Source of the DNA: Azolla caroliniana | Lineage: Eukaryota; Plantae; Polypodiophyta | Reading direction: 5' to 3' | DNA length: 64,000 nt | Assembly: GCA_043228905.1 (NCBI GenBank) | Contig: JBHGNT010000018.1 | Span: 930,001-994,000 of the forward strand | Shown: positions 7,105 to 61,300 of the stretch, piece after piece | How positions within the stretch are numbered: the first letter of the stretch is position 1 | Layout of the letters: each line of letters opens with the position of its first letter | Made by a program: the position numbers and the translations under genes | The notes under the pieces: generated by a model | Database searches by the model: none | What the model was told of the DNA's origin: nothing | Seen by the model: the letters and a program-made list of their open reading frames with translations, nothing else

Positions 7105-7235
7105 TCAGGGGTATTTTAGGGAAATAAAATAAACACAGGGGCATTCTGGGAATTAAAGAAAACGAAAAGGGCATTTCAGGGAAATAAAGAAAATGGAGGG
7201 GTATTCGGGGAAATAAAGAAAACTCAGGGGCAATA
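7105..7235 (+). repeat. ~30-bp degenerate tandem repeat (4 copies) just upstream of the ROS3 start
   Basis: A unit resembling ggg(c/t)attt(c/t)(a/g)gggaaataaagaaaa recurs about every 30 nt. Confidence 0.7.
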
Positions 7236-7276
7236 TGCATAGTCTGAGTTCACTAGCGGCAGAGACGAACAGAGAG

Positions 7277-10022
7277 ATGGAACAGAGGAATGACAGTGAA
7301 GATGGAGAGGAATCAGTGAGGATCCATGTCGGAGGTCTCGGTCCCTCTGTCATCTCTAGTGACCTTATGCAGACCTTCTCTTCCATAGCCACGGTTTCCT
7401 CCCTCGATATCATTCGCACCAAAGGCCGCAACTTCGCTTATATCACGTTCCGCTCTCCATCCCCACAGGCAATTAAACGCATCTTCACCTTGGTAAGTCC
7501 TTTTTCCATCCTGTTCTCTCCTTCTGTCTGTCTCTTGTCTCAAAGAATATTGCAAAACCAGAAGGAAAAATCACATTGTTTCCCCATGAATTTGAGGAAG
7601 GCAAAACTGCCAATATTCTTCGAACTGTGAACAACATTGGTAGGTTGGCCTCTGTATTGTGCGATAAGAATTTCACTAGGTTTTGTTGTTTTCACTACGA
7701 TAAGGCAATCTCGATCAAGAACCTGCTTACTTCACAGAAAACGTGTAACTTATCACTCAGTCTAATAGTGACATGTGCTCTATTTTGTAGTCAACATCAT
7801 TTATAAGTAGCTGTAGTAATGAAAATGCCTCAATCGTTGAACCGAGCAGCTTTCACACTTAGATGATCTCGATAAAGCCCAAAATTTGCATGTTATTGTG
7901 TGACTCTCGATGTTTGGAATAGTACTTTAGAAAACTCAATTGCTATTCTGAGTTGGGATATTTTTACTTCTTCATATAGACATGTTACTGTAACCATCAA
8001 TGCTGAAACCTCCAAAGATTATAATGACGAAAGCATGTCAAAAAGAAAATTTAAAATTTTCGAAGCAGCAGCAATGTGTTTGCCCTTGAAGTTTTCTTTG
8101 TTCTTTGAGTACTCGAGTGTGTTTGAAGCATTGTATGAAGCATCAAGCTGATTTGTTTCACCTGTGGTGTATCAATCTGATTTGGTTCATCCATGACGCA
8201 TCAATCTGATTTTGTTAGCTCATTTTTTCAAGTATGTTCATGTATTTCTTTTAGTATATACCTTGAAATGCTCACATGATTCATTAATCTGATTAAAGTC
8301 CTGCAATGATATCTAATTACGTGAATTGTATTGTAAAGTAAATGTCAAGTTACATTTAATGTTTATATAGGCCAGTAACTTCTCTTAGAAGCCATCATCA
8401 ACTTTAAAGGAACCATCATGGATCATGAAATCATCCTGCTCTTTATTGGAAAACTTACTCATTTAGGCATGCAACTTGTAAATGTGCAAATTCCTGTATG
8501 CGTATGGATGATTTTTATCCTTCTTCAGTACAATGGATGCGTATGGAAAGGAGGACGTCTTAAGTTGGAAAAGGCGAAACAATTTTACCTAGACAAACTG
8601 CGTCAGGAGTGGGAAGAACGTGATCTTTTGAATGAAAAAGAAGAGACAGAGGCTTCAAGAACTTCTTCCATAACTCAGACCAAGGGCTTACCGCAGCTTG
8701 ATCAATCTCGAGACCTTGAAATTTATTTTCCAGGATTAAGGAAGGTAACATAAAGGTTTTTGTTATATTTTTTATCATATTCTGGAAATTTAACATTACA
8801 TAAAACGTGTACGTTTGCATATGGATGTCTGGTTCTTATTACTTCTGCTTTTCTGTAGGATTTCTTTTGCACTAGATTGATTATATCTATTTGACGTTCT
8901 GGCTTACATCTACATACATCATGCATGCAAAGATGATGAAAACTATTAGGGTAAAGCAAAACAGCTATGATATTTGCTCATGATAAAGGTGAATTATTAG
9001 ATACATGATAAGTTGGTCAGTTCAAGGATGGGGTCTTATAAAAGGCTTACATTAACACCCTTCTTTACAAAGGTTCAATAATGTGGCAAGCATGCAGATA
9101 GCAAATGCCAGGATGATTGTCGGTTTTGACATATTTATATGCTGTTTATGGTTTACATCTTGTCCAGCAGACTCAATTTGTTCTATAATCTCCATCTCAT
9201 TGTAATCTAGTATCGTTTTATTGTTTAATTGTATCATTATTTCATTTCAGGTGAAGAAGATTCCGGTGAAGGGACTGGGAAAGCACAAACGCAGCTTTGA
9301 GCGTGTTGATCCACTGCCATGTTCTCTTTTAGAACTTTGCATTGGTGATGGAGATTGCAAGAGTGCTTTGTCAATCCAAGGTGACATGTAAAAAATATTT
9401 AACATGTTAATTAGATCTGAATGTGATTCAAAACACAAAGGAGAGTAGGTCCAAAACCACATATATGAAGGGAAGATAGAAGTAAAACTCGAAATTTAAT
9501 TTAGGAGTTTCTTCTCATTGGTTCTTTCTTGGTGCTTCAGGTATAGACAAGAAAAACACAGAAATAACGATGAAAGATGCTGACAAGATTAATCAATTTA
9601 AGAAAAACTCACAAAGAAAGAGAAGGGAGATGTCTGAAATGGAGACACAAATGATTGATATAGATGAAAAAGACAAATCTCCTTCAAGAAAGAGAATGAA
9701 GTTTTCCAGAGAGAAACAACCAGCAAACGTGAAATATGAATCTCAAGACCAGCTACGACTGAATATAACAAAGGAATCTACAAAGGAGGTACAAGAATGT
9801 CCCAGAAAAGAGAGTTTCACGCCAGAAAAGAAGGTGACTTTTGACTTGCAATCGAACAATGAGATAACAAATGATAAAGCCAGAGAAACTCCTGATACAA
9901 ACATGGTTAGAAGAGAGAACAACGAGCTGAGTAACTCAGATGCTGCAAACTGGTTTCAAAAAGGATCTTGGAAATCTCTTGTCGGGCAAACAGGGCGTAT
10001 TTCTTTCAGTGTGCTAGGTTGA
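7277..10022 (+). CDS. ROS3: RRM-domain protein REPRESSOR OF SILENCING 3-like (NOL8-related)
   Basis: Exons 7277-7492, 8529-8744, 9251-9380 and 9541-10022 are in frame; an in-frame upstream ATG at 7235 is an alternative start. Diagnostic motifs: VRIHVGGLG, RTKGRNFAY, YNGCVWKGGRLKLEKAK, IYFPGLRKVK...GKHK and C-terminal WFQKGSWKSLVG...SFSV, as recalled from plant ROS3. Confidence 0.85.
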
Positions 10023-13000: not shown

Positions 13001-14675
13001 TGTTTATATGCTTAAGAAGCTATTCATACGCATAACAAAATTCCAGGTGCAATATAGTTTTGTCTCATTGAAAAACTATTTAAGACTTCCATCAATTTTG
13101 TTTCCCATCCAAGTCTACGACTTCTCTTTCGGAATTAAATGGTGGTACCCTATTAACTTATTTAATAATCTCATTGTTGACTCGTTAAGGTAAGTTTGAA
13201 ATGTGACAAAACCTCGATTCACCCAAAGACAAGGTAATAACTACTCATTGGTGAAATCTTAATGAGTTGACAAAATCACAAAAAAGGGGCTTAACTTGTG
13301 GCATATATGTGATGGAAGGAATTGATGACAATACAATATAAGCTTGTTTTCGACAATGAACAAATACGGCCAAGAACGATCATTAACCCTATTACCTGGG
13401 GATGGTTCACGTGGGGTACAATGATCTTATAATCGAGGGCACGTTGTATGATAGACCGAAATGAGTTGCACAGGAATATGGTTGACATTCCATATGCCAC
13501 ATGGGGTCCTTTCTCATTGATGAGATATATAGCAAGGGAGACGAATGAAGGAGATTTCGAGTTGTTCTGCGGAGGCCAATGTAAAAAGGCATGGTTTTTA
13601 TGGGATCCATGTCATGTGGCCAATAACATGGCCTATGATTTCATAAGATCGTTCTATATAATTGGGGGGGTGGTAATGGAGCAGATCAATATATATGACG
13701 AGATGAAAGAGCCTTATTGACCATGTGCCCATGGTCTCGACACTCCATGGTCTCGACACTCGGCCAAACATGTCCGTGGTGGTGTCTAAGGGATTCATTC
13801 CCATAGCCCAAGGAGACACATGGGTTCCTTCAACAAGAAGCAAGGAAGGAGATGGACCATGGCCTAATTAATGGCTTTCCTTCAACAAGAAGGAGACATG
13901 GCCATGGCCCACTCACAGACAGAGAGAGAGAGAGAGAGAGAACAGCTTGGCCTTTGAAGCTTTCTCCTTTGAATAGATCTCTGTTTATATATACATAAAA
14001 TATTGAAATAGGTAGATCCAGGGCCGGCACAGCACAGAACAGAGCAGAACAGAACAGAACAGAAGCTCTTCTTTCTCCTCTTCTTCTACATGAAATCAAT
14101 GAGTCTCTGAGAAGCTGGACCTAGAGCCAAATATTTTGTTGAGAAGAAGAGACAGCACCAGCAGCATCAGAGGAAGACGAATAAAGGAAGTAAATTGGTT
14201 TTGCAGATCAGGCAAAAAGGAAAATTTATTTTAAGAGGCCTCAAATCTAGGTTTACAGAGTAAATAAAGCTCCAGAAAAGACTGTTTGTTTAGGGTTACA
14301 GTGAAAGAAAGGTTCAGAATACGGTTACTGTGAGGTTTAGTTAATACTCAGCATTATTGGCTTCTTCTGTAGATCAATTAAGAAAAACATCAGAGAAAGG
14401 CTGCATTTTTTAGGGTTTCCGAAAATAGAGACTATCCAGAATTCGTTTACTCTGCAGATCAAGTAAGAAAGACTATTGCAGTTTTAGTGTTACAGAGAAC
14501 ATATCATACTCCATATATCCGTCACGGATAACCTAAGAGAATATCAGTGAAAAAGACTGAATTTTCAGATTTTCAGAACGAACCCAACTGTGTAAGAAGG
14601 AGAGCCTACATCTTTAGGATCGCAGATAGCAAACCCAATATTCAGACCTTGGTTTCTTATTCTAGGGTTGAAAAT

Positions 14676-17600
14676 ATGGCAAGTTTTGCACGAAGTTCTA
14701 GCTCAAGCGTGCGACCACCACCCAATAATCATCAAATTGATACTGTGGAAGGTCTACCTTCTCCTTTCCAAGAATTAGGTATGGAGTTTTCTAGAGAAGA
14801 GCTAAGAGAAACAGGTTATGAGATTTTTGCCTTAGCTTGCAGAGCAGCTTTTGGTTCTTCTGGAAGCAACATTGTCAAAGCAAAAAGTAGCTTAAATTTT
14901 GTATCACAACCTCCCCAAAAGACGCTAAAATCGCATGCTGCTAGCTCTATCAAGAAGGCTCTTGGATTGCCTTCCAAAAGGAGTAGTGAAAATGATAAAG
15001 AGAGAGAGAGGGAGAAAGAGAAGTCGCCAGTTGATATCATTAGGATGCAAATGGGCATCTCAGATCATACTGATACTCGGACAAGGAGAGCTTTGTCTCG
15101 AACAGCTGCTGGCCAGGTATGTACACAAACAATGAATTCTATTTAGAGTTTTTGCCATTGCTGCATGATCCATGGTGTAGGCTCGATCTCTGCGCCTGAA
15201 AAAGATTACCATTTGAAAAAAGGACACCCCCCCCCCCCCCTGCCCGTTGTGCATGGTTGCCTTTATGATCCATGAGCTCAGAGTAGTGTTCCGAAATATA
15301 CGTCCATATGATGGCTTTGCAAGGATTTTTAAAGTTATGCTACCGAATTTATACATCTTAAGATCTTTATCTCCATAATACGAAATTTAGATATTGAGTT
15401 TCTCTAGAATTTGTCTTAAAAATTTCTATTCAAGTTCAGTTTTCTTTAAGCTTTAGCATTTCTCTTTGTTGTACACCAGGCGGGAAAGAATGTGGCTATG
15501 GTACTCCTCCCTTTGGAGCTTCTGCAGCAAATTAGGCTTGCTGATTTTGGAGATGTGAGAGAGTATCAACTGTGGCAGAAGCGTCAATTGAAGGCCCTTG
15601 AATTAGGTTTGCTTCTTCATCCATACATTAGCCTGAGCCAATCTGATAATGCTGCCCAGCAACGCCTGAGGAAAATCCTACATTCTAGCTTAGAAAAACC
15701 ATTAGAAACAGGGAAAAACTCAGAAAGTATGCAAGCCCTTAGGAGTGCAGCTATGAGCTTAGCAAGCAGAACTGATGGTGGTGATGATGGGAAGAAGCTA
15801 GAAGTTTGTCATTGGGCTGATGGATTCCCTTTCAACCTTCATCTATACCAGACGATGTTATCTTGCTCGTTTGATAGAGCTGATGAAACAAATATTATAG
15901 ATGAGGTTGATGATGTTATTGACGTGTTAAAGAAAACTTGGGGAATCCTAGGCATTACTCAAGCATTGCATAATGTGTGTTTCATGTGGGTACTCTTCCG
16001 CCAATTTATTGTGACTGGTCAAACTGAAGTAGATTTGCTGAAGGCCACCGAGAACCAGATGGGTGAAGTCACAAACGATGCCAAGGAAACGAAAGATCCT
16101 CAATACCTTTCAGTTTTAAGTACTGTTTTGACTTCAATACAAGCATGGTCAGAAAATAGATTATTTGCCTATCATGATACTTTCCCTACTGGAGCAAATG
16201 GGGCTATGGAGAATTTGCTTCCGGTTGCATTGAATGCTGCAAAAATCTTACATGAAGACATTGCCCATGAGTTCCGACGCCGGCGGAAGGAGGAAATAGA
16301 TGTTAGCAGCAGTAGAATAGAGCTGTATGTCCGATCTTCTCTGAAGACTGCATTTGCACAGGTGCATATTTGAGAAGTTTCAAGAGTCTTTTCAGTCTTT
16401 TCCTGATATATACTTTGTTGGTCATTAATTAAGGCTGGATTTTAACCATGTTAGGCAATGGAGCAAGCTGATTCGAGAAGAAAATCCATGAATAGGAAGG
16501 GGCCTACTCCAGGACTTGTTGGTTTAGCTAATTGTACAATAGAATTGATAAGGGTTGAAAGAGAGAAGTTCAGCCCTGTGCTGAATAAATGGCACCCATT
16601 AGCTGCAAGTCTTGCTGCTGCTACTCTACACTCTTGTTTTAGCCGAGAGTTAAAACAGTATTTATCTGGTGTAAGTATTTTCACTGCCGAACTAACAGAG
16701 GTCTTGCAGTCAGCAGATCAGTTAGAGCAAGAGCTTGTGCAAATAGCAGTTGAAGGTGCTGTTGATTCGGATGATGGTGGTAAAAGGATTATTCGAGAAA
16801 TGGTTCCTTTCGAAGCACAGACTACAATTATGTCTTTATCACGGAGCTGGATGCAGGAAAAGCTCAACCATCTTCGTGAATGGATTGAACGAAATGTTAA
16901 TCAAGAGGTAACAAGAATTACTTTTCTCATGGAACATGGATATTTAGGCACATTAAGAGTGTTTGGTCGTATCTTCTTTCCTCAGGATTGGAATCCCCAA
17001 GCATTGCGGGAGCATTATGGTGCTTCGATTGTAGAGGTTTTCCGGTTGATTGAAGAGACTTTAGATTCCTTCTTTGCACTGCCCATGGCGGACCCTTCTT
17101 TGTTGCTTCCTGACCTGGTGCTAGGCCTAGATAGGGCACTACTCCGTTATGTAGTTGTCACAAGGAGTGGTTGTGGTAAGGCATCTAATTTGGTTAAAAT
17201 TTAATTTGAGGTGCTGGTGTTACTAATCAGGTTTATGAATTATAGCTTCTGAAAATGTTGTGTTACCTATTTACAGGCTCTAAGAAGGATATAATTCCAC
17301 AATTTCCACCACTCACCAGATGCAAAGAAACCAAGCTTCATTCAAGCTTTGGCGGATTGTGGAAGAAGAAAGACAAAAGTCCAACTCCTAACAGAAATAA
17401 AGGTCAAGAAAATGGCAGGCACAAAGTTGGATCTTTATCATCCAAGATATGTGTTCGTATCAATACCTTGCACCACATTCAGACACAAATTGATGCTCTT
17501 GAAACAAGAATTGCAAATGGCTGGAAGACAAACTCTGGTACTACGAAAAGCAGTAAGAAGGGGAGCAGGTCTCAAACTCAACCTCCACCTCAACAGAATG

Positions 17601-18277
17601 GCACTCATCTTCGATTTGAACAAACGCGCACAGGGGTTCAAGAGGCCATCCCATTGCTTTGTGAGATAGTTGTATATCATGTTGTTTTTCAAGATCTACG
17701 CTCAGAGTTTTGGGAAGGTTTATATTATGGGTCTGTTGCCCAAGCTCGGATAGAGCCAGTTATCCAATCACTCGAGTCCCAACTGGTTTTTATGTCAGAG
17801 ACCATACACGAAAAACTAATAACACGTTTGATTTCCACCTTGATGAAGGTTAGCTTTGAGACATTACTAATGGTAATGCTTGCAGGGGGTCCTGGTAGAG
17901 TTTTCTATGTTAATGACGCTGAAATGCTCCATGAAGATTTCAATGCTTTGAAGGATCTTTTTAAAGCTGATGGAGAAGGCATACCCAGTGATGCAGTTGA
18001 AAAAGCTGCTAGGGTTGTGACTCAAGTTCTTCCTTTGTTTGCTTTAAGCACGATTGATCTCATACATAACTTTAGGCAATCTTTGCTAGAAGCACAAGGC
18101 CAAAATTCAAGTAAGTCTAGGATGCCTCTTCCTGAAACCACAGGTCAGTGGGGCCCAACTGATGCTAATACTTTGTTGCGTGTTCTCTGCCACCGGTCTG
18201 ATCCAGCAGCTTCCAAGTTTTTGAAGAAGACATATGATCTACCTAAAAGTGGTTCAGTGATATATAATGCCAAATAG
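14676..18277 (+). CDS. DUF810 / Munc13-homology (unc-13-like) protein, PATROL1-related family, intron-poor clade
   Basis: Exons 14676-15116, 15480-16361, 16455-16907, 16986-17175 and 17277-18277 are in frame. Motifs: LPSPF...ELRETGYEIF, LLPLELLQQ, CHWADGFPFN, LLMVMLAGGP, GQWGPTDANTLLRVLCHRSD...SKFLKKTYDLPK. Confidence 0.93.
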
Positions 18278-20215
18278 AGTAAGGTTCAGTTTTGAAATGT
18301 GAAGTACATATATCATCTGCGAGGTATATATTCCACAAGGGGTATGTTTGTAGAAGGCAGCTTTTGCCGCATTTGTATACTTTTATGAATCATATCCCAT
18401 GAGCATTTATGGACTTCTTTGCTGATATGGTTATGAAGACCATGATTGAGACAACATTTCTTCAAACTCAGACAAAGTTGTTTGGAAACTGAGCTTTTGC
18501 ATTTATAGCCCGGGAGAATTGTCTTCCATTGTGAAGAGTAGTTTCTGCTGTGCTGCAATATCTTGTTGATACAAGTAAAGAACCAGGACAGAAGACGCTG
18601 ACATACTAATGCCAACAAGCTCATGGTTTTCTGATTGGGCAAAATCAAGTCTCCAATTAGGGGTTTTTTAGTGATGCATGCGCTGAGTAACTGAATGCAT
18701 TTCTGTTTATCTTGTAATTCACATGGAAGAATATAGCAACAGCAATTGAAAATCTGTTAAAATGTAATAAAATAATCTTTGATTATTTTGGTTGCTATAG
18801 ACGTTGGTATTGTATTTATACATGACATATAATTCAAAATACAGTTTTTTGTAATAATTCAAAAGCATTAAAAACAAGCAACATTTTTGCAGAGCTTTAA
18901 ACCATTTTCAAAAGTACCATTTCAGAAGATACGGTTATATCTTAATATAGCTTCTTCTGAAACAGATAATTGAATTGTATGTTGTGTGGTGTTACCATCT
19001 CTATTCTTAATTTGCAGCTTCCTGGTGCAGGATTATGTGAAAATTGTGTTTTTTTCTCATCGTATTTGTTCATCTTGAATAAGTTGATCTCGTAAGATTC
19101 ATTGAGATAATTCTGAAATAGGTAAGGCCTATGATGTGTTTGGGACCTAAGAAAGTTTTAATTGTTACATTCAATCCATTGATAATAACATCAAATAATA
19201 TTTCTCACTTTTTGGTACCGCATGGGTTGACGGTTATTGCTAGCTAACATGTTTAGTTTGATAGACTGTTTGTAGCCACCCATGTAACATGAGTACTATA
19301 TCCATTTACCTGCACATGTATATGGCCATGTATAGGACAAGAGCACTGGATCTGTCTATGCAATGCAATGATGGTAGAACGAAATTTTTTTTGCCTTCTG
19401 TTATCAGAGAAGTGCACATAGTTGGCCTTCTGTTATCACTTGATAGCTGTTGTAGGGACAACTTTTGGTCAAGAAACGGTGTATTATGTTCAATTGGTTT
19501 TCAATTTCTACCACCTTTGCTGCGTTTTTATACAATGCAAAATTCAAGTTCTTTTCGATGGTTTGTGCTGTTTTGTTGGGGTACTTTGGTATCAGTGTGA
19601 TTTCTTTAGGAGGGATACAAAGATTTACCTTATGAAGTCATGCGTCCACCAAACAGCATCAATGAAAATGATTCTCAAGTCTACTGTACCAGATATTCCA
19701 AAATATCATGTAAACCTCTACCTATACTCAGACCATTGATACAGGGTACGTGTGCTAATTGGAACATAATCTAATCCACATGTATTGTTATCCACATGAA
19801 TACATCCAAAAAATAGAGTAAAATTTCTCTATAATCCACTAAGGCAATAATAATTCAAGATTTAGAAACAAAGTGGCCTCTGCACCCAGGCATAAATCCT
19901 TCTATATGACAATATTTCATGCACCAGAATTATACATATGTGGTGTAATTTGTACACTGACTAGCGCTAATAGTTAGCAAAACCGGCTAAGACATAAATC
20001 CTTCTATATGACGAGATTTCAAGCAACAGAATTGTACACTCATTAGACCTAATAGATAGCAAAAAGGGCCAAGACTGTGTATAAACAGTCATATTTGTAG
20101 AAGCAAACGATATTATGGCATTTGCAACCATCCAAACCTAATCCTTGTGTATGCATAAAATTGATGAATAAATGGCAACAAGATCTAAATGGTGTGTTGT
20201 TAAAGCCTAACCCGA

Positions 20216-21905
20216 TCAAGGCTCAGATTGATCACTGCATAGTACAAGAACCCCGTGCTTTTCACAGAGGGCTTGCTCCTGAACAGCATTCACAGCCATG
20301 CCATAGCTATACCGAAGAGGCATGGCACCCCAAAGACGATGGAAATCAGTGATACAATCACCCCTCCTCTTTCTATGTTGCTTTTTTGCACTCAATGCTG
20401 AGGTGCTCACCAGGTCAGCAGCATCAGACTGTACTGAATTGCGCGTATCACCATAGTCCCTTAGCTTTCCTTTTACGAGCAATGGCCCTTGGTTTGAGCT
20501 ATTAGCCACAACAAAATTCATGGCGATGTCTTCACAGTTGCGTTCTTGATCAATGTACTCTCTGATACTAGGAGGCATTTCACATGCATATTTATACAAA
20601 TAGTCCGTTGCTAGAACCATAGATTTTGTGAGCATGATAGAGTACCTGTCAGAATTTCATATAATATTAGCCACCAAGAAATTCATTGCAATAAATCTTC
20701 ACATTTGCTTTCTTTATCAGCATATTCTCTGATACTATGGCATTTCACATGTTTAGAGTACAGGTTAAGTATGTAGTATAATACCCCACGACAAAACTCA
20801 TGCCAAAATATTCAAAATTCCTTAATTAATAAACATACATTATGATACCATAGGGCACCTCATTGCCATTATGATACAAATAATCTGTATCTGAAATTAT
20901 GATTTTATGAGCAAGATACAGTAAATTCATGTGAATTCATGGTTCCTTTCTTTATCGACATACTCTCTGATACCATACAGGATTTCACGTGTATAGTTAC
21001 ATAAGTCATTTGTAGTTTCCTTTTCATTACCACCATATTTCTGATACCATGTGTAACTATACAAAATCATCTGTACCTTTACTTTCTTTATAATCTCCAG
21101 CGCATTTCACATGTACAGTCATACAAAAATGTAGCTTTATCCTTTCTTTACCAAGACACTGCCTGATTATCATCCAAATATGTATCTTGATTGTCCTTTA
21201 AGTACATACTATACATTCGCATGTGGAGTTAAACAGAATGTAACTTTCCTTTCCTAAAAAACACGCTCTGTTATTTTTACCTTCTTTACCATCAATCAAT
21301 CTGTAGCTATAACAGCCACAGGTCTTGTGAGCAATATAGATCGAAGAGTACCTGTCAGGATGAATGGTGTAGATCCATGACTTCATCTTCAAGTGATATT
21401 CGTGTGACCGAGGGAAGAATCCTACAATTCGGTCTTCATTCTGCTTCCAGATCTGAAATGCAAGCTTCAGATCATCGAGGTCCATGGTAATATCGTCATC
21501 ACAGACCAACACGGCCCTTGTTCTGATATAAGAACGAGGAGAGAACCGTTCATTGAGGCTAGAAGAGGTCTGTCTGACGAGAAACACGGGCGATCCGAGA
21601 GAGACGAAGTCGGTTTGATTGAGAAGCATCCATGGGGTGGATGTATTCCCCCACAGGATATAGATGGAATGAACGACGGGAGAGACGGAGTAAGCGCGAG
21701 CGATCTGCTTCAGGAGAGAGAGGCGAGCTTCGGCGAATCCACTGATGAGGACAGAGATCTGATCGGAGATGAGCTTCCACGGGGGAGGGTAGAGGGTTCT
21801 GTCACAGAGATCGAGCCCTGAAGAAGAAGAAGAAGAAGAAGAAACAGAAGAAGGAAGAAGAAGGAGAAGGAGAAGGAGAAGGAGAGGCCATAGCCATGGG
21901 GCCAT
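20216..21905 (-). CDS. Glycosyltransferase family 64 (exostosin-like; At1g80290/C3-type), with N-terminal signal or anchor
   Basis: Exons 21905-21352 and 20645-20216. Motifs: SDQISVLISGF, SLNERFSPR, AVLVCDDD (DxD), RIVGFFPRSH, DRYSIMLTK across the junction, RNCEDIAMNFVVA, RGDCITDF. Poly-Leu N-terminus. Confidence 0.93.
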
Positions 21906-22100
21906 GGAGAGCTTCTAAGACATTTTATGTATAATCTTACTTACCGTTAAGAAGGAGGAAGAAGCCATAGCCATGGGGCCATGGGAAGCTTCTAAGACAA
22001 TTTATGTATAGTCTTACTTAGTGTTAAGAAGGAAGAAGAAGAAGAAGCCATAGCCATGGGAAGCTTCTAAGACATTGTTATGCATTCTTACTTAGTGTTA
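21885..22100 (-). repeat. Three ~75-bp tandem copies spanning the GT64 start codon, followed by (GTGTTA)n
   Basis: gccatagccatggg...agcttctaagaca..tatg...tcttactta..gtta recurs at ~21887, ~21964 and ~22047. Confidence 0.85.
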
Positions 22101-24349: not shown

Positions 24350-30737
<6,388 letters not shown>

Positions 30738-33500: not shown

Positions 33501-36500
33501 ATGCCTACAACAAATGATGTCGTCTCACGACCAACATTTGAAGTGATATTTTTCGGTAAGCAGATTTCTGTAAACATTATTAGAAAAGCATTAAGCACAC
33601 TAAAAAAGAATAAATGATGTTGTCTCATGACCAACATTTGAAGTGATATTTTTCAGTAAGTAGATTTGTGTAAACATTATTTAGAAAAGCATTAAGCACA
33701 CTAAAAAAGAACAAGTTTTTACCAACCATGTAAATTTCTGCTTGTCTTGAAGACTATCTAATTAGAGCCTTATTGTGGAAGGACATTTATTTTTCATATT
33801 CCATGGGGATAATCTCCATTTTTACGTCATGAAAGTTGATATGAGATGTTCTAGAGAATTCCTAAAGGAGTCCAACGAATCAATCTATCAACTTAGTGAA
33901 GAAAAACATATGCCTTTCAAGTTTTGGAGGGTTTCTTGGGTGTGATATGAATCAAAACGGTCAATAGATGGATGCCCCCATCCTTGCCCATAAAACCACG
34001 TACACGCACACGCACACGCACACACCACCTCTTGTCCTCTCTTGGTAACTATAAACTACCACGCTCACCATTATACCCTAAACATTACTTATTTATTTGC
34101 TTTTGAATAAGCTACATAAACCATATTGAAGAGCCCATATAAATAATTGGACGCCCCCACTAATTTACTCTTCAATATGTTTATGTTGTAGTCGTTCCAC
34201 TCTATTTATTGCTAGTAAAACTATGTTAAAGTAAAAGTAGCTTGTTTGCTTTAATGAATTGATCAAGCTTGCATGTATATTTCACATAAATCTACAGCCT
34301 TAATATCTACCTTTAGAGTTCTATACCATCTCCCCCCCCCCCCCCCAAAAAAAAAAAAACTACATTCCCATTAGTTAGGAGATTTTTACATAAAGAATAT
34401 ACAAGAATCAGGAATCAACCTCTGCCCGAGTTTAAGAATATGAGACTGTGTACATTTAATGTAAGAAGGTATCTAGCGTTATAACGTAGTGGCGGTGGCG
34501 TTCAACGAAGGGAAGGTGGGAGGAGAGTAGGAAACAACTAGTGTGAGGGCTGGTAGTTCCACCTCGGGTCATTTCCTCCTTGTGTCACCATCGGCGTGTT
34601 CCTCCATTTCAGCTAAAAGCGGAAGTGGGTAGTGACCACGTCGTCGGAGTAGCTGCAAACCTCGTCCAACTGCCCTCGTAGGTAGCTGATAATCGTGAAC
34701 CCAAATATCCATGATCAAGCTTTATACCATCTTGTTAATAGTGTTGTTTTGTTTAGGGTTTAGGGTAATGGCTATATTTCTAAAGGTTTTCTCACTAAAA
34801 CTACATTTATTGTTCTAGTTAGCATAGCTTGAAGTTAATGTTGAATAGTGTTAACCAATTTGAAGCTAATGCTGACTATTAACTTATTGAATTACATGAT
34901 TATGTAATAGACCTAGATGATACCTTGTATCCTCCAAGCAATGGCCTTATGCGAGCATGTGTGGATCACATAAGAGGTTGGTTTGATCTTAATTAGTCTA
35001 TAAATGTATTATTCATCGGCATACAAATATTTCAAATTTGTTCGATCAACATATTCTCATCCTCATTGCACACATGTATGATTCGCTATACTACTAGAGC
35101 ATTATATATGCATCAAGAAACCGCCTCATTGCTCATAAATGATCGACGTCTAATAACATGTACTATACCTTTTGTATAAATTGTAGAGAACAAAACACAA
35201 AAGTACCTCTAACATTTGGCATATTTATGAGGACACTTATAACTTCAAACTTTTACCATAATGCTTATCTATATGCAGTATTTTGTAGGCATACCCTATT
35301 CAGAAAACTCAAGAATATGAAACATGTTAGGGGTATTTTGTGTTTTTTTTCGTAAATGTAGTGTGTATATTTGTGTATTCATGATGGTTTGTTTTTGGAA
35401 CCTAGAATATCTTGTCCAAAATCTAGGATTCAAGCTTCCCCAAGCTGCAAAGTTTAGTGCTGACCTATATGCAACCTATGGCTCTACTTTGGCTGGCCTT
35501 GTGGTAAGAATCAAGATTGTCCAAAGGACCATGTTGGAATATATAAATGTCTACCCTTATATTCTCAACCTTTAAGCTACTTTAACAACTAAAATCAATT
35601 TGATATTCAAAACATTTAAAGATTTTAGTTTGGGAATTCTTTCAGGCTAAAGGATACAAGTGTGACTATATTGAATACAACAGGTTTGAATTAGATCCTT
35701 TACAGTTACGTGATAAAAACAATCTTTTGAACATTGTTGTTTAGATTTGGTTTAATCGCGTCCCTATTTGTTAGATTTATCCATGGAAATTTGCCTTATG
35801 AGGTGCTACAGCCTGACCCAACTCTAAGAACCTTGCTTTTGAGCATGCCACAAAGAAGGATAGTGAGTGGGCATAAATAAATATTGGAAATGATCCATAC
35901 GGATGGAGAATAAGTTGGGCATAATTAGTCATCTTCATTTCACACTCTTGAGAGTAGATTTGTTATTTAGGTATTTACAAATGGAGATAAAGATCATGCT
36001 CACACGGCATTGACAAATATGGGAATTAAGGATTGCTTTGAAGAAGTGATATGCTTTGAAACCCTTAACTCTTTGACAAACAACTTCAACAATTCAAAGC
36101 CAATAGTTTGCAAACCCTCAATGGAGGCATTCAAACGTGCAATCGAAATTGCAAAGGTCGATGCGGACAAAATAGTATGTATTTGCAAAGGCCTTCAAAC
36201 CATTGAGTTCCACATACTAACACATACAAAGAATTAACCAAATGCATGCTTTGCTTATTTGAGAACAATCATATATAATTGGTAATTGATAATGGTCATT
36301 TCATAAATAACATAGTAACGTTACTGCACTCCAATGTTTCATGATAACTTTCTTGTTTTTGCATCAAATTGATCCTAATTGTTTCGACTTCTTTCATTCA
36401 TAGCTTTTTCTCGATGACAATTTGCACAATATTAAGACTGCAAAAGCTGCCCGCATGTGGACTTGTGTGGTATTGTTATCTTAAACTAAATTTTGCTTTA

Positions 36501-37168: not shown

Positions 37169-40100
37169 TTACACATTGATGCTGTTGATGATGCATTCAA
37201 GGAAGCTCTTCATTACTGATACTGCTTCTTTATCTAGAAAGCACAAAACAGCAAAACATGTTGATAAGCTACTCTGACCTATACATAGCACTTAAAATTT
37301 AGAAGTTTTAAGGGTATTGATATCTGTTTTATCAATCAATCTAGCAAAACATGTTGATAAGCTACTCTGACCTATACATAGCACTTAAACTTTAGAAGTT
37401 TCAAGGTATTGATATCTGTTTTATCAATCAATCTATCAATCTACGTATCTTTCAATCAATCCATCCATCCATCAACATCTATCTATCAATCCATCCATCT
37501 ATACCTATCTAATATATGCATGTGTGTATCTTATGGAACATAATGTCTCATTAAGGTTACCGAGCTTTGGTACAGTATGCTTTGCCCCATGGCGTATCAC
37601 TATGGGGTCTTTGAAAGCCAGCACAAGCTTTTCATTGGCAGGTTTCAAAAAGTCGTTTTCACCTGGAATTCACATTGTCTTCCAATCAATTCATTATAAG
37701 CTTCCCATTTACCTATTTCATAAAAAAAAAATCCATTTTGCTTTAGCTCAAAACCACAAAATCACTCAATCCATCACTTTCACCTATTAAATGCACAGAC
37801 GGGCAGTTGATAGGTTCAGAATAGCAATCTTTCCATTGATGGTCACCAATAAGCATTCCGCCAGAGATAATAATAACGCAACGCAATGGTGGAAGGGATG
37901 TGAGTGCTAGACCCTGAATGAAACACCCATAATAACCATAGCAAAAAAGAAGTTAGGAAAAAAAACATTGATGTATGCAGATGAGAAACAATTTCTCATA
38001 TACTTTTACCTGTTGCTGCATACCTGCAAGCGCCGCTGAGAGAAACGCACCCTACAAAAAATTACATAGATAGATAGAAAATGAGAAAAATAAATAAAGA
38101 AAGAAAGATCAACATCTTTGAAAGAGGCTGAAATGGCCTACGAGACCCAAACGAGAATTACATATTAATCTTTTGTGAGTAGTAACTTCAACATTCAACA
38201 TTATAATTTTCTGCTGTACATATTAAGAAGAAGTGTTGCATGCATGTGTTACCATATCGATGTTTACAGTAGACAAATTACATTAGATTAGAATGTATGG
38301 CTGTGAGATTGAGATATAGCGTGTGAGCGATCAGGAAGATCAAGCTCCTCAACAGAGGTGCGTGATTGTAATTAACATATACATAATCATATCAATCAAT
38401 ACAACTTACCTATCAACATCTTTGATTGGTTGAGAAGTGTGATTGTAATAAACATATACATAATAATATCAATCAATACAACTTACCTATCAACATCTCT
38501 GTTTTGCTGAGGAGCATGATTGTAATCAACATATACTAATCATATCAATCAATACAACTTACCTATCAACATCTTTGATTGGTTGAGAAACGTGATTGTA
38601 ATAAACATATACATAATCATATCAATCAATACAACTTACCTATCAACATCTCTGTTTTGCTGAGGAGCATGATTGTAATCAACATATACATAATCATATC
38701 AATCAATACAACTTACCTATCAACATCTTTGATTTGTTGAGCATGATTGTAATCAACATATACATAACCATATATCAATCAATACAACTTACCTATCAAC
38801 ATCTTTGATTATTGTAAAGCTTTATTTTTACCTGATTGGAACTTTTGTTAGTAGCATAAACATGAGAAATTTACCTGAGAAAATCCGAGTAGTCCATCGA
38901 AAGGGCCATAAGTTTCCATGTAATTGCTTATGAAATCTATGCATTTGTCCAGATCCTTGAATGTGTTAACGTCTCCATTCTACAAGCGGAGAAGGAAAAA
39001 GAAGGACGTCTTACAAAGCACAAGTTGAATTATTGAAGAATGATGACTCTAGGGGATTGACAAAGCCTACCCTTTCACATTGAAACCACTCATAATAAGG
39101 TGGGTCAAAGAAACCTTCAACGCTGGATTTTCCACGAGCATCAAATGGAGCATTTGGAAAGACCTGCAAACATTCATTTCTCCTCCTCATAAAAACCCTA
39201 AATTTGAGTGAGTGAGTATGTATGAAAGGGAGCTGTTGCAATGAGAAATTCAAATCTGAACCTATACAACACATATACTTATCAAGCCACATATTAGAAC
39301 CCGAAATCTAATCAGACTAGATATAATGTTTATTTATCATCAAAGTTTGTAATGCAGATAAATTTAAACACATGCAAACATCACCCCCTCTCTATGATAT
39401 AACTCTTATTGAGGGATAAAAGAAGATACATGGAAGTCTTTTAAGAGGCCAAAGTGATCTATGAGACCAAATGGGAGATTACATCTTAAAATGATGAAGG
39501 GAGACTGAATATTACCCATCTATGGAATGGGAATCTGGGATTGAGCCCGTTATAAGGGTCAAACTCGGTTCTCTCAATTTTATGACAAGTTTGCTGTTAC
39601 AGTCCAAACCACATTGATTTGAATTTATTGCAAATATATATTTATCATCAAACCAGAATAATACCGATTCAATCAAGCATTTGATTAGTTTGGGCTAAGG
39701 CTGAATGTTAAAATATCGAAAATGATGAATGACTTTGGATTGTTGACGCTACTTTAAAAAACTATTTGTTAGACATGATCCTCAACCTAAAAAAAATCAA
39801 TCAAAAAACTCTCTAAAAATCTAAAACTAATCAAACCACAACATCAAAGAAACTTGAATACCAAATGAAAATCTAACCAAAAACCTCATTTGTCCACTTA
39901 AAGATAGCTTCAATCTAAACCCTGAATCAAACAAATCCTATGTACTCTCAATCCAAACCTAAATAAAAAAATCATAGATATAGAAGGAAGCACTCCAAAG
40001 TAACGCTGGTTTTTTCTTTGATTTCATCAAAAGGGTGTGAAATGAATTAAATATTTAATTAACTAATTTAAGTATATATGAAAGAGGACATGCATGGGCC

Positions 40101-41579: not shown

Positions 41580-41891
41580 GCAACATTCGTGCCAAAGATC
41601 AATCAAGTTGAGAACTTGAAATTTAAGATGAAAAGCTTATGTATTGGGAATTTGTAAAGACTGTGGCCTATGCATGGATTGCTGCTACAATAGCGCAATC
41701 AAATTTACCCTATGATCCTTCTAATCGGCATCGAAGCAACATTCGTGCCAAAGATCAAGCAAGTTGAGAACTTGAAATTTTAGATGAAAAGCTTATGTAT
41801 TGGAAATTTGTAAAGATTGTGGCCTATGCATGGATTGCTACTACGATAGAGCAATCAAATTTACCCTATGATCCTTCTAATCAGCATCGAG
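41580..41891. repeat. ~157-bp tandem duplication
   Basis: caacattcgtgccaaagatcaa...atccttctaatc.gcatcga occurs at ~41581 and ~41737. Confidence 0.9.
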
Positions 41892-46306: not shown

Positions 46307-48160
46307 TCAAGTTGATACATTCACCTTCACAGCCTTCGCCAATTTCTCGACAGGAACAGTTGGGATATAGGTTGCAAGAGGGAAATGGTTGCCCTTGAGG
46401 CTACCAACAATTTCATTGAATTTCTCAGCACAGAAGAGCGTGGGTGGAGAAGCAAAATGAACAGCCAGAGGCGCATATGGTAATTTCAAAAACTGCTTCC
46501 ACACAGCATATGTTAACTTTTCTGCAAAAGGCTCATAGGTAGCATAATAGGATTTCGCTGTTTCAATTAAACCATTCGTCTGAAGATCTGATACAACTGA
46601 TTTCACTATTTCGGGTACTTGTTTGGCAACTCCATAAGCTTGATAGGACCGCACTTTCAATGATTGAGGAACAAAACCTTCTGCCACTCCCACAACATTA
46701 TCCACCTTCTCAAAAAAAATCAACAATATTAACTCAGTGACTCTAACATATAGGATATCCGAGAAGTATAGTGCAAGCCAGTGATTTCAAATTACAGTAT
46801 TGTATACAAGAAGGAATTCAAAAGTATGGAATTTAAGAAGGAAACTATAAAACACAGATAATTAAATTTTATAGCAACGTAGTAAGAATTAGCAAATATG
46901 TATCAGCCAAATAGACTTTGAAATAAAAGAATTGCTTAAAAAGAATATATGTTTACCTTTCGGTCAACAAAGAGCAATATTTCATATGGTTTTCCCTCTA
47001 TTGTTTGATAGAGAGGACCGATCACTGTTCTCACAGTGCTCTCTACACACTGCACACCAGGTTTGAGTGGCCCTGAGCTATGCTTTGCAAATTCATAGAT
47101 ACCAGCTACATACTTCGTAGCTTTATCAACTACTATTTCCACTACACCAAGATACTTTGGTCCTGTTTTCAGGGACTGTAAAATCAGAATTCAGAGAAAA
47201 ATCCTCAGTGTGTAACATGCAACCATGAAAACATTCAGATCATTCTCGTTTCAGAGCTGAATTATTTATTATAGTCCACGTGCACAACATTAAAAGATGA
47301 GTGCGGAATTGAAGGATCAACTCGGCATGAAAAGACGTAATCACAAAATCTCTTTTCTGGAATGTCAAGTTGAATAATGAAATGTTCCTGTAAACTGAAA
47401 ACGTTATCAAATATCCAAGATTATGCATGATATGGTGCGTGAGCATATATATTCGTCATAGAACATATATTAGTCAGGAGAAAGAAACAGAAAAAATTAA
47501 GCTTTCATAAACAAACAAATTAGGTCTATCAATGCCGACTTATGCATTGAAATGCTCACTGATACATAGAACCTTGTGTTTTAACTAGCTTGTGCGAGTA
47601 TCAACATTCAAACAGTTACTTCATCATACACTATCGACATGCAGAAAGAGAAGTACAGAACCTTGGAAATTAGAGGAAGTAATATCCAAAAAACCTCCAT
47701 AGACTTTATTGAAAGATACATGGTCCCTTAGTGAATTCCTTGTATTGACACTCGAACAATTACAAGCGAAATTCAACATGCAGCAAAAGATAAGCGTATA
47801 ACATGGAACTAGATAAGAGAAAGAACGAAGCTAGGAACAAATAACTGATGAGAGGAAAGAAGAGAGCTAGAACAAGGAAACACGGTTTCTTCAGAGAATT
47901 CCTTGTATTGACACTCGAACAATTCGAAGCGAAATTCAACATGCACAGGAAGAACGAAGCTAGGAATAAATGAATGATTGGAGGAAAGACGAGAGCTAGA
48001 ACAAGGAAACAGAGAAGAAAGCTTAAGACAGGGAACAGTAGAAGAAAGGAAGAAGCTGAACACAGTGAACTGTGGAAGAAAATACATAAAAAAAAACAGA
48101 AAGAAAAGCTCTGTATACCTGTGGAGCTGCGGAATCGGCGATTGGTGCTCCGGGGGCCAT
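46307..48160 (-). CDS. LDAP: REF/SRPP-family lipid droplet-associated protein (LDAP)
   Basis: Exons 48160-48119, 47175-46957 and 46705-46307 give 219 aa. Motifs: KYLGVV, YEFAKHSSGPLKPGVQCVESTVRTVIGP, LLFVDRKVD, YEPFAEK, YIPTVPVEKLAK. Confidence 0.92.
47730..48010. repeat. ~163-bp tandem duplication in LDAP intron 1
   Basis: gaattccttgtattgacactcgaacaatt...gcgaaattcaacatgca...agaacgaagctaggaa...gagctagaacaaggaaaca occurs twice. Confidence 0.85.
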
Positions 48161-48513
48161 GATTAGAGGGGGAAAGTGAGGAAGGTGCAGGCACGTTCAG
48201 AGGTATCAAGGGAAAACAAAGATCGCAAAAAGCACAATGGAAGGAAGAAACAGAAGAGACAGAAACAGAAAGAGCTGGAGTGAGTGAGCGAGTGCCTGCA
48301 CAATTGGAGAAGGAAACAGACGAGATGGAACGACAGGGAACGTCTGCAGGAGCGACGAAGAAAGGAGAAACAGAAAGGAACGAACGAACGAACGACGAAG
48401 AAAGAAGCGTAACAGAAAAGGAAACGCTCGCAAAAAAAGGAACAAAAGAAACTGTACAGTAGTGTGAGGCGCCATTGTTGCTGTGACCTCCCGAAGCTCC
48501 GAGGCTCGGCAAT

Positions 48514-48820
48514 CCGAGCCTCACGCTCGGCCCGAAGGCCCCTTCCGGAAGGTTCTCCCCGTCTTTCTGTGATCTCTGCCGTGGCTTCCGAGAATCAGGC
48601 TCGGCCCGATGGCCCCTTCGGGAAGCTACTCCCCTTCTTTCTATGGTCTCTGCCGTGGCTTCCGAGCCTGAGGCTCGGCCCGATGGCCCCTTCGGGAAGC
48701 TTCTACCCGTCTTTCTATAGTCTCTGCTGTGGCTTCCGAGCCTCAGGCTCGGCCCGAAGGCCCTTTCGGGAAGCTTCTCCCGCTTTTCTGTGGCCTCTGC
48801 CGTGGCTTCCGAACCTCATC
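48514..48820. repeat. GC-rich 74-bp tandem repeat (~4 copies) with internal palindromes, upstream of LDAP
   Basis: Units start at 48514, 48588, 48662 and 48736; a partial unit starts at 48809. Confidence 0.92.
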
Positions 48821-58614: not shown

Positions 58615-61300
58615 GCTGCGGTGACTTCAAGCTTCTTCTCCGTTATGAGCTCCCGAATATGATGAAACCGTGCCTCAATATGTTTCGTTTTCGCATGGTA
58701 GACTGGATTCCGAATGAGGTGTATTGCGCTTTGTGAGTCGCAATGTATGGTTTGTGTTGGATGACCGATTCAGCTTGTAGCCAAAAAATCAACTGAAAGT
58801 TGGTGCAGCCAGATTGCTTCCTTCGCTACTTCCGACACGGCAATGTACTTAGCTTCTGTGGTCGATAGAGCCATGCACTCTTGTAATTTTGATCTCCATG
58901 ATATGGCGCCGTCGCCATAGGTAAATACATAACCTGTTGTCAACTTCCCATTGTCTGGATTGCCAACATAGTCGGAGTCAGTGTAGCCATCGACTTTGGT
59001 CAGATTTGCTGATCCGAAAGTCAGTTGTACATCTTCGGTTCCTCTTAGATACCTGAAGATGTGCTTGATGGCCTCCCAAAGCTTCCGTCCAGGTTTTGAC
59101 ATGTACCGGCTAACAACTCCTATGACATATGCAAGGTCAGGTCGAGTTGCCACCATTGCGTACATGAGACTTCCTACGGCCGATGTGTAGGGTATTCCGC
59201 TCATGCGCTTTCTCTCCTCTTCTGTGGATGGAGTCTTTGTCTGATAGTCAGAATGATGTCCGAAGCGGTGTTGGTGTTGGCTTTGCGTTCTCCATATTGA
59301 AGCGCCTCAACAACTTTCGGATGTAGTCGGACTAGGAGAGCCAAAGGCTCTTTGCTATCCAATTTCTCTCTATTCGCATGCCCAATATGTGTCGGGCTTG
59401 TCTGAATTCCTTCATCGTGAATTTGTGCTTTAGTTCTCCAATCTCTTCTTGATTGCTCCTTGCAATGAGCATGTCGTCGACATATAGGATCAGATAGATT
59501 CAGTACTCGTCGGCCAATTCCCGAGTGTACATACATGGGTCGAAGTTGGGTCGGCGGTAACCAAGCTGCTGAATGTAGGTATCGAATTTCTGATACCACA
59601 TCCTTGGCGCTTGTTTTAAGCCATAAAAGCTTTTCTTCAGTCGACATACGAGGTGAATTTCCTCCCTCATCGCCATGAAGCCTGCCGGTTGAGACATATA
59701 GATGTCTTCTTCCAAGTCTCCATGTAGGAAAGTTGTATTGACGTTCAATTGCTCAAGCTCTAGATCTTCAGTCGCCACGACTCCGAGTCGGAGTTGAAGA
59801 GTGATCATCTTGACTACTGGTGAGAAAATCTCGTCGTAGTCGACTCCATGTTCTTGTTTGAATCCCTTGGTGACGAACCGAGCTTTGTATTTGGGCTTCT
59901 CTAAATCATATACATTTTTGTATCGGAAGACCCATTTGCAGGGCCACGGCTTCCTTCCAGCTGGTAATTTGACCAGCTCCCATGTCTTGTTTTCCTTGAT
60001 CGAGTCCATCTCGGATTTCATGGCTTTTTGCCATTTTTCGGCATCCGGAGCGGCTATAGCTTCCTCGTAGGAGCTTGGTTCGCTTGCATCCGTGTAGTTG
60101 ACGTAGTTGAGGTTCAGTTGATAGATCCCTTTGTCGGACAGGTATTGTTTGAAGGCTCGGTAGGTGTATTCACCCTAGATCAGCTGACTCCCATCGTTAG
60201 AGTAGTGGGCTTTTGCCGATTAGTCGATGGTGAGTCCCATCGTTTTTTGCTGAATGTCCTCATGAAGGACTTGGCCAATTGTTTCGTCCAGGTTCAACTT
60301 TGGGCAGTTGTTGGCGAATGTTGTGCAAAATAGCTCCAAACTCGTCTGTAAATTCGGAAGGAGGGCATGGTCTTTAACTTCTTCTTCGAAGTTAATCCCT
60401 TGAGAGGAGAGCTCGTACAACACCCGGCTGAAGGTGTTGATGTGAGAGGTCGCAGGATTTGTGTCTCATCTTCATATTGAACAGTTGTCGGATCAATATG
60501 AGCTTTGATGAGGACTTCTTCTCATAAATGGCCTAGAGCTTCTCCCACAGGGTAAATGCTGACATCTCTTTGGCCATGTTGAAGTAGACGTTCTCGGCCA
60601 GATACATTCAAATGGTTGACCAGGTTATCTCGTCCAGGGAGCGTCATTCATCTGTTGTCATCGAGGCTGGCTTGTTGTGCCGTATTGCCACGATTTGATG
60701 CCGGATGATCAGTACATCCTGCATCATCTCCTTCCATAAGGCAAAGTTTTTGTCGTCAAACTTTCGGATTTCTACTCCTATACCGGATGTTGAAGCCATG
60801 TTCTGTAGGAAGTGAGATTGTTGGCCTGGTCCTTTCCTTCAGTCGATTCTTCTCTTCTCAGGTTTTGTGTTGTTGTTGCTGCCGGATTGTAAGTCGTTCT
60901 GATACCAATTGTTGAGTGTTGCAAAATAGGATTGAGGACCTATTAGTGAGTCTAGCAAACAACGCAAGTAGTGATTGAGGTAGAGATGTGCACTGTGAAT
61001 ATATTCAGGAGAATGAAAGTAGAGAGTTGCACATATGAAGAGAGAGAGAGAGAAAGAGAGAGATGTGCTCAAAGAAAGACAATTTACATTAACCTCTAGA
61101 TTAACCTCACTTATATAGTTAGGGTAATTTAGCCCTAACTATGAGGACGTGTTCACACTAGGATACAAATGGGCAGAGTGGGACTTTTGGCCCAGCACTC
61201 CAGCTCCTCAGATGGACTACAAAAGACAATTAAATGCCTTACAAACATTTTTCCCAGACAAAAGTTTGTTGGTAAACCTATATAAAAGTAATGTTGTTTA
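58615..61300 (-). mobile_element. Ty1/copia LTR retrotransposon, defective: 5' LTR, PBS, gag, integrase scrap, RT, RNase H; 3'-truncated
   Basis: The LTR ends ...tcaaCA at 60910 and is followed by the PBS tggtatcaga (tRNA-iMet type). Gag ATG at 60799 (IRKFDDKNFALWKEMM). RT motifs: WELVKLPAGRK, YKARFVTKGFKQ, LKKSFYGLKQAPRMW, LYVDDM. RNase H motifs: GYTDSDY, SWRSKLQ, CDSQSAIHL...TKHIE. Many frameshifts and stops; no 3' LTR seen; 5' LTR start is approximate. Confidence 0.93.

Follow-up and report, generated by a model that had tools for sequence, protein, structure and literature searches.

A 706-nt intron of a fern GT64-C3 gene, composed largely of decayed copies of its own exon and likely derived from a tandem duplication

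GT64 gene and its intron

The window, a 64-kb stretch of DNA, contains on its minus strand a gene with two coding exons. Exon 1 (21352..21905) and exon 2, which includes the stop codon (20216..20645), both match the Pfam domain PF09258 (Glyco_transf_64), at positions 2-127 and 134-240, respectively. Joining 21905-21352 to 20645-20216, with the intron removed, gives an open reading frame of 327 aa. The start codon is a predicted one; the same protein start, MAPWLW, is found in the close relatives P0001 and P0002. The spliced protein aligns end to end with its fern orthologs without a gap at the intron site.

The nearest named proteins are those of Adiantum (69-76% identity), and the best named matches among the many returned by a fern profile search are GT64 C3 proteins. 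The gene is a predicted member of the GT64 C3 clade, a call that rests on the names of the matches, the tree having no EPC1 or GINT1 rows. In this tree of 33 rows the window protein joins P0176 and P0307 in a group (100/100) that has a long stem (0.35) and nests with the Adiantum proteins in a 99/98 group; therefore the host is a fern. The window protein has the same PF09258 domain as the Arabidopsis glycosyltransferase family protein 64 C3 (P0115) and groups with the fern orthologs.

Homologs from lycophytes, liverworts and other sources, P0158 (Diphasiastrum), P0159 (Riccia) and P0160-P0163, are 645-1095 aa long, and their GT64-C3 domain is followed by long extra domains that look glycosyltransferase-like by eye. 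Ferns and seed plants have the short form only. The region of the start codon in the window gene is triplicated by a young tandem repeat of 77 nt (21878-22094, 2.9 copies, 84% matches), the second local duplication in this gene, which leaves upstream ATG codons with short frames and donor-like GTAAG motifs. The surrounding frames were assigned by eye, and we take them to be an RNA-recognition-motif gene (7217-10022), an UNC-13/DUF810-type gene (14532-18277), a monodehydroascorbate reductase (29943-30737), a rubber-particle or lipid-droplet protein (46307-46786) and a Copia-type reverse transcriptase remnant (58770-60174).

The intron (20646..21351, minus strand) is 706 nt long, has GT-AG ends and lies in phase 2 within the Arg codon of the DR|YS motif; it is delimited by the reading frame and by the exact skip described below. 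A 14-nt direct repeat, found by sequence search, spans both the donor (21345..21358) and the acceptor (20639..20652). As had been stated in the first-pass annotation, its two copies are identical. They are the only ones in the whole 64 kb. The AG|GT lies inside the direct repeat at both splice sites, as the Rogers model of intron gain predicts. In the unspliced reading, the frame is shifted by a 7-nt insertion and ends with a stop at 21198; the read-through peptide with the same start occurs in P0001, P0002 and P0016, three protein calls of relatives that run into the intron. Both exons stay open, and the sequence between them is full of stops and indels.

Exon copies within the intron

Local alignment of the spliced coding sequence with the intron gave five matches: 20762-20665 (score 103, 79/93 identical), 20936-20786 (score 99, 104/151), 21051-20937 (score 64, 75/104), 21340-21293 (score 39 in the free search, 34/45) and 21127-21102 (score 36, 22/26). 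The controls were 1000 dinucleotide shuffles, with a mean of 30 and a maximum of 48, and 174 other 706-nt windows, with a maximum of 39. The similarity of intron and exon proposed in the first-pass annotation is thus far above that of shuffled sequences, and the positions given there are right to within about 10 nt. The source is the start of exon 2, a segment of 146 nt from Tyr-Ser-Ile to Val-Ala-Asn (20500..20645, minus strand; 62% A+T); the limits proposed earlier, 20501-20650, are corrected accordingly. Against exon 1 and the remainder of exon 2, the intron scores only 20. No echo of their own coding sequence was seen in three control introns from outgroup loci.

The intron was divided by eye into seven segments, C1-C7, in the direction of transcription. 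C1 (21293..21351) is the donor-anchored copy of the exon 2 start, which had been noticed before as lying directly after the donor; in fact, the first 7 nt are followed by the frameshifting 7-nt insertion. When anchored at the donor, this copy scores 36, a value reached by 0/5000 shuffles and by 0/3283 sampled real GT sites. The 5' part of the intron thus reproduces exon sequence from downstream of the site, again as the Rogers model predicts. C2 (21137..21246) is a faint copy missing from the earlier list; its score against the exon is reached by 37/300 shuffles, and against C5 and C6 by 0/300. C3 (21078..21136) is a short sub-repeat drawn from the unit's middle part (exon score 36, 0/300 shuffles). 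C4 (21018..21077), another short sub-repeat, scores 39 against C5 and C7 (0/300; against the exon 46/300). C5 (20937..21017) covers the middle of the unit (score 70, 0/300), C6 (20786..20936) is a nearly full-length unit (score 99, 104/151), and C7 (20665..20762) is the 3' part of the unit, nearest to the exon in both place and sequence. Five of the seven segments match the exon directly at the level of 0/300 shuffles, whereas C2 and C4 match only other copies at that level. A profile made of the exon and three copies also finds C1 (E 0.011) and C3 (E 0.034), no other part of the window giving a better match.

The copies are 68-79% similar to the exon. C7 is in frame with exon 2, the frame running through, and its end lies 165 nt from the corresponding motif of the exon. 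C6 may span the intron-free junction, against which it scores 30, as compared with 29 against the acceptor. Since the intron body matches the local exon and has no other copy in the window, it does not show the pattern of a transposon-derived (Introner-type) intron.

Two further ideas were tried and rejected. Raw mismatches are fewest at the second codon position (p 0.02), as if the copies had once been translated, but this falls to P = 0.058 after control for base composition. The C6|C7 boundary has exact echoes of 7 and 8 nt that could mark it as a copied old acceptor, but for the whole linker 1033/5000 shuffles are as good, and C5 is an equally good match to the start of C7.

The 3' end of the intron

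A linker of 19 nt (20646..20664, minus strand), with an in-frame stop and without a pyrimidine tract, separates C7 from the acceptor. Nine of its final 10 nt agree with the end of exon 1, including an exact match of 7 nt, a likeness equalled by 45/7549 AG sites and by 28/1210 CAG sites. Over 25 nt this likeness is not significant, 1107/5000 shuffles being as good.

The repeat unit ends right after the exon codons GCT AAT, and this creates the motif CTAAT (20666..20670), whose A lies 22 nt upstream of the acceptor and is the predicted branch point. CTRAY is the branch-point consensus. By chance it occurs in the same distance range at 575/7666 AG sites. No pyrimidine tract precedes the acceptor, the last 30 nt of the intron being 43% pyrimidine.

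Proposed scenario

For the most part, the intron is made up of copies, now decayed, of the coding sequence of its own gene, and it was probably derived from tandem duplication of an exon segment of about 165 nt containing AG|GT, so that the first AG|GT became the donor and the last one the acceptor, with no change in the protein. In this scenario, the ancestral fern gene would have been unbroken at the site, with Arg-Tyr coded by AGG-TAC. Slippage or repair would have duplicated in frame a segment of 55 codons around AGG-TAC, and the first GT could then be used as the donor and the last AG as the acceptor. The 3' end of the duplicate would have set the codons GCT-AAT 22 nt before the second AG, providing a ready-made branch site. 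Further whole units and shorter sub-repeats may have been added by unequal exchange or slippage. Finally, the copies would have decayed, and the 7-nt insertion and stops would have deprived the unspliced RNA of its coding capacity.

The array of copies was built up in several steps, not by a single duplication. In this respect, the tandem-duplication birth suggested in the first-pass annotation has to be modified; the copies, the flanking repeat and the distant outgroups agree with it. The intron fits the AG|GT duplication model of Rogers; that mechanism is already established, and the fern gene adds an example.

Homologous genes and alternative origins

A metagenome scan yielded 11 loci, nine of which cover the site, L006 and L008 stopping short of it. 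The nine loci come down to about six lineages, with three moss-like loci that are nearly identical, Arabidopsis (L004, 99% to P0115) and four others that are angiosperm-like. The label moss-like reflects likeness to proteins that group near Riccia and lycophytes. None of these nine genomic loci has an intron at the DR|YS site, in agreement with the earlier expectation for outgroups, and none has AG|GT there. In the moss-like loci, two other places are occupied by introns, 146 and 135 nt long as measured in L007, and these loci are therefore genomic. Nine further moss-like protein calls run intact over the site, their break coming at the second moss intron. In the angiosperm GT64-C3 loci there is either no intron or an intron at another place, whereas the fern gene, whose activity is predicted, has the DR|YS intron. 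Two single-exon GT64 genes are reported for cotton in the available text of PMC11440917; we infer that they belong to C3. A search of prokaryote genomes gave no match.

Some of the outgroup introns deserve a separate comment. In the legume-like GT64-C3 genes (L005, positions 1065-1274; also L011 and P0178), a separate 210-nt intron interrupts the Arg codon of F-R|Y, some twelve codons downstream of the fern site. This intron has no echo of its own exon (346/500 shuffles score as well) and is probably an independent gain. The second moss-like intron (L007, 3152-3286) corresponds to a point 4-5 nt beyond the unit's 3' end (about 20495 in the window), at a place where the fern gene is intronless. 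This may be a coincidence; a link between the end of the unit and this intron has no sequence support.

These comparisons bear on the possibility that an older fern intron at this site was later filled and overwritten by duplications of the exon 2 start. The outgroup DNA compared is all moss-like or angiosperm, and the final 19 nt of the intron are only weakly exon-like. In grasses, loss exceeds gain about sevenfold, and apparent plant intron gains often turn out to be repeated losses once taxa are added, according to the available text of PMC4256211. Moreover, P0176, P0307 and P0308 (86% to exon 2), which come from three contigs, are each called from the first Met just inside exon 2, which suggests that this sister group also has an intron at the site and perhaps shares the one described here. 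However, exon 2 has been copied into the donor and the 55 nt that follow it, so that an old intron would need to have lost its entire 5' end, and 0/9 outgroup loci have an intron here. In addition, the proteins searched include no exon-1-only or exon-2-only calls at the identity of other ferns, a weak argument, as such contigs may be missing. On balance, an older intron is improbable.

Equally doubtful is a single templated insertion (repair filler, a concatemer or a piece of cDNA of the same gene) between the halves of a 14-nt target-site duplication, which would still be an intron gain. It would account for a flanking repeat of exactly 14 identical nucleotides followed by the 7-nt insertion, and for copies that are rearranged and unequal in length. 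On the other hand, the last unit stands in exact 165-nt tandem register with the exon, the codon states differ among the copies, suggesting different ages, and no poly(A), terminal repeat or second copy of the intron body was found within the window. Tandem duplication of the exon segment is thus the preferred origin.

Splicing and presence in related taxa

Eight of the 24 listed sequencing runs were compared with the locus; the comparison used assembled contigs only, and the run types are guesses, no run being recorded as RNA. An exact 706-nt skip with GT..AG-compatible ends and exon-only cover was found in X9, X6, X7 and X10 (4/8 runs, from four studies), so that the predicted junction is present in assembled transcript-like contigs; the position of the joint can slide within the 14-nt repeat. 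X9 is labelled 'DNA?'; from its size and exon-only cover, we infer that it is transcriptome-like. A contig of X15 has a loose end at 20652 that reads by eye as the end of exon 1, and another, of lower depth, covers most of the intron (20786-21374) and may be unspliced RNA or DNA. The intron is present, and the joined form absent, in X5 and X11, DNA-like runs of relatives; the X11 contig spans 20150-21813 with 90 differing letters and 33 gap letters relative to the window. X12 has no contig over the locus. Internal AGGT sites occur at 21282, 21078 and 20860; no second splice joint was seen in the examined contigs, which drop rare forms.

In principle, the skip between the 14-nt repeats could come from a template switch, a jump in the assembly or a deletion allele, with the genomic copy a broken gene, and the guessed run types, the use of assembled contigs only and a joint ambiguous over 14 nt leave some room for this, but it is hardly credible, as four runs, each from a different study, show the skip and no other form, as the skip has GT-AG ends, restores the 327-aa frame aligning end to end with fern orthologs, and joins two open exons while the copies are full of stops and indels, and as DNA-like X5 and X11 lack the joined form. 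Splicing of an intron made of exon copies remains the preferred reading.

Over 20150-21563, several of the runs X5, X7, X9 and X10 contain two haplotypes that differ by about 4%, which points to hybrids, polyploids or mixed samples.

Age and order of copying

Residues were considered derived if shared by the window protein and P0176 and absent from at least six of the ten other fern proteins. Of the 16 copy codons scored at such residues, 10 are nearer to the derived state and three to the ancestral one, with three ties; therefore the copies postdate the split from those other sampled ferns. P0019 also has the Ser-Ile of the window protein, but its place in the tree is among the other ferns, and the shared residues are taken as convergence. 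The copies also keep states since lost by the window exon, namely Thr at unit codon 20, as in the X10 and X15 allele, and at codon 31 one of Val type. The intron is likely to be a late acquisition on the long branch of this fern group, made before the divergence of the close relatives.

The event is old, not fresh, judging by the 68-79% similarity of the copies to the exon, as compared with about 95% between the window and a relative's contig over the locus. Thus the first-pass description of a rarely caught, still-legible birth holds as regards the legible source; the event itself is not recent, and the mechanism has been published, plant cases included.

At unit codon 26, C5 and C6 have Gly, as do 9/10 ferns, whereas C7 has Ser, like the exon. 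In the stretch common to the exon, C5, C6 and C7, three informative sites, read by eye, group C7 with the exon, and no site favours a different pairing. This is a thin hint that there may have been two rounds of copying.

A more detailed and tentative reading, which we consider possible though rather less probable than its rejection, treats the intron as a layered record. There may have been one in-frame duplication of 165 nt, its length selected as GCT-AAT fell at branch-point distance from the new acceptor. At least two rounds of growth would have followed, leaving older 5' copies with Gly (GGT) and AGG-Arg codons and a youngest copy that shares Ser (AGT) with the exon, and the working acceptor would have hopped downstream. 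If this reading is true, the locus would document how an AG|GT intron was born in a conserved land-plant enzyme, a precise and fixed event, common to multiple species, that could be rebuilt step by step.

Comparison with known intron gains

The source of most gained introns is untraceable, and most apparent plant gains may be repeated losses, as stated in the available text of PMC4974935 and PMC4256211. A review of the Rogers model, as far as its text is available, counts 188 events, including ones in Arabidopsis and Oryza, many of them imprecise (PMC3443670).

The closest parallel is the ATP2A1 intron, whose gain was re-enacted in cells (PMC3265369). In ATP2A1, and probably also in the fern gene, a coding AG|GT gave rise to the donor in its first copy and to the acceptor in its last; in both the protein is unchanged, and a branch-like motif comes from the duplicated exon. 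In the available account of ATP2A1, however, the origin was inferred from paralogs before re-enactment in cells, and the segment has a pyrimidine tract, whereas in the fern gene the source is legible along the intron, several copies are present and there is no pyrimidine tract. The introns of SPOG_01682 and of SOCG_00815, both from fission yeast, also span several tandem units of exon sequence, but these are 24-nt units with AGGC in repetitive genes with partial EST support, as described in the portion of PMC3629103 that was available; the fern unit is about 165 nt long and lies in a conserved enzyme domain. The potato RdRp gene PGSC0003DMG402000361 is likewise a case of a plant nuclear intron formed by local tandem duplication. 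According to the available part of PMC4974935, the duplicated stretch there ran across an intron-exon boundary already present, took over the acceptor signals of that boundary and gave the gene an additional exon, whereas in the fern gene a single exonic AG|GT probably supplied both splice sites and the protein was left without any addition.

Among the titles of the largely open-access literature searched, none was on an intron gain in a fern or in a GT64 gene; lists of plant cases may be given in supplements. The fern gene is likely an unusually legible case of a known but rarely traceable mechanism: in several related taxa, the sequence of this conserved gene reveals the source, the two splice sites and a candidate branch site. 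It adds an example and not a principle, the mechanism being already established, and offers a concrete plant substrate for re-enactment as done with human ATP2A2.

The window is rich in tandem repeats of 70-160 nt, in line with the proposed duplication. Recent arrays at 33512-33711, 38360-38810, 41580-41890 and 48513-48818, with units of 74-156 nt and 87-94% matches, show that local duplication is frequent in the host genome.
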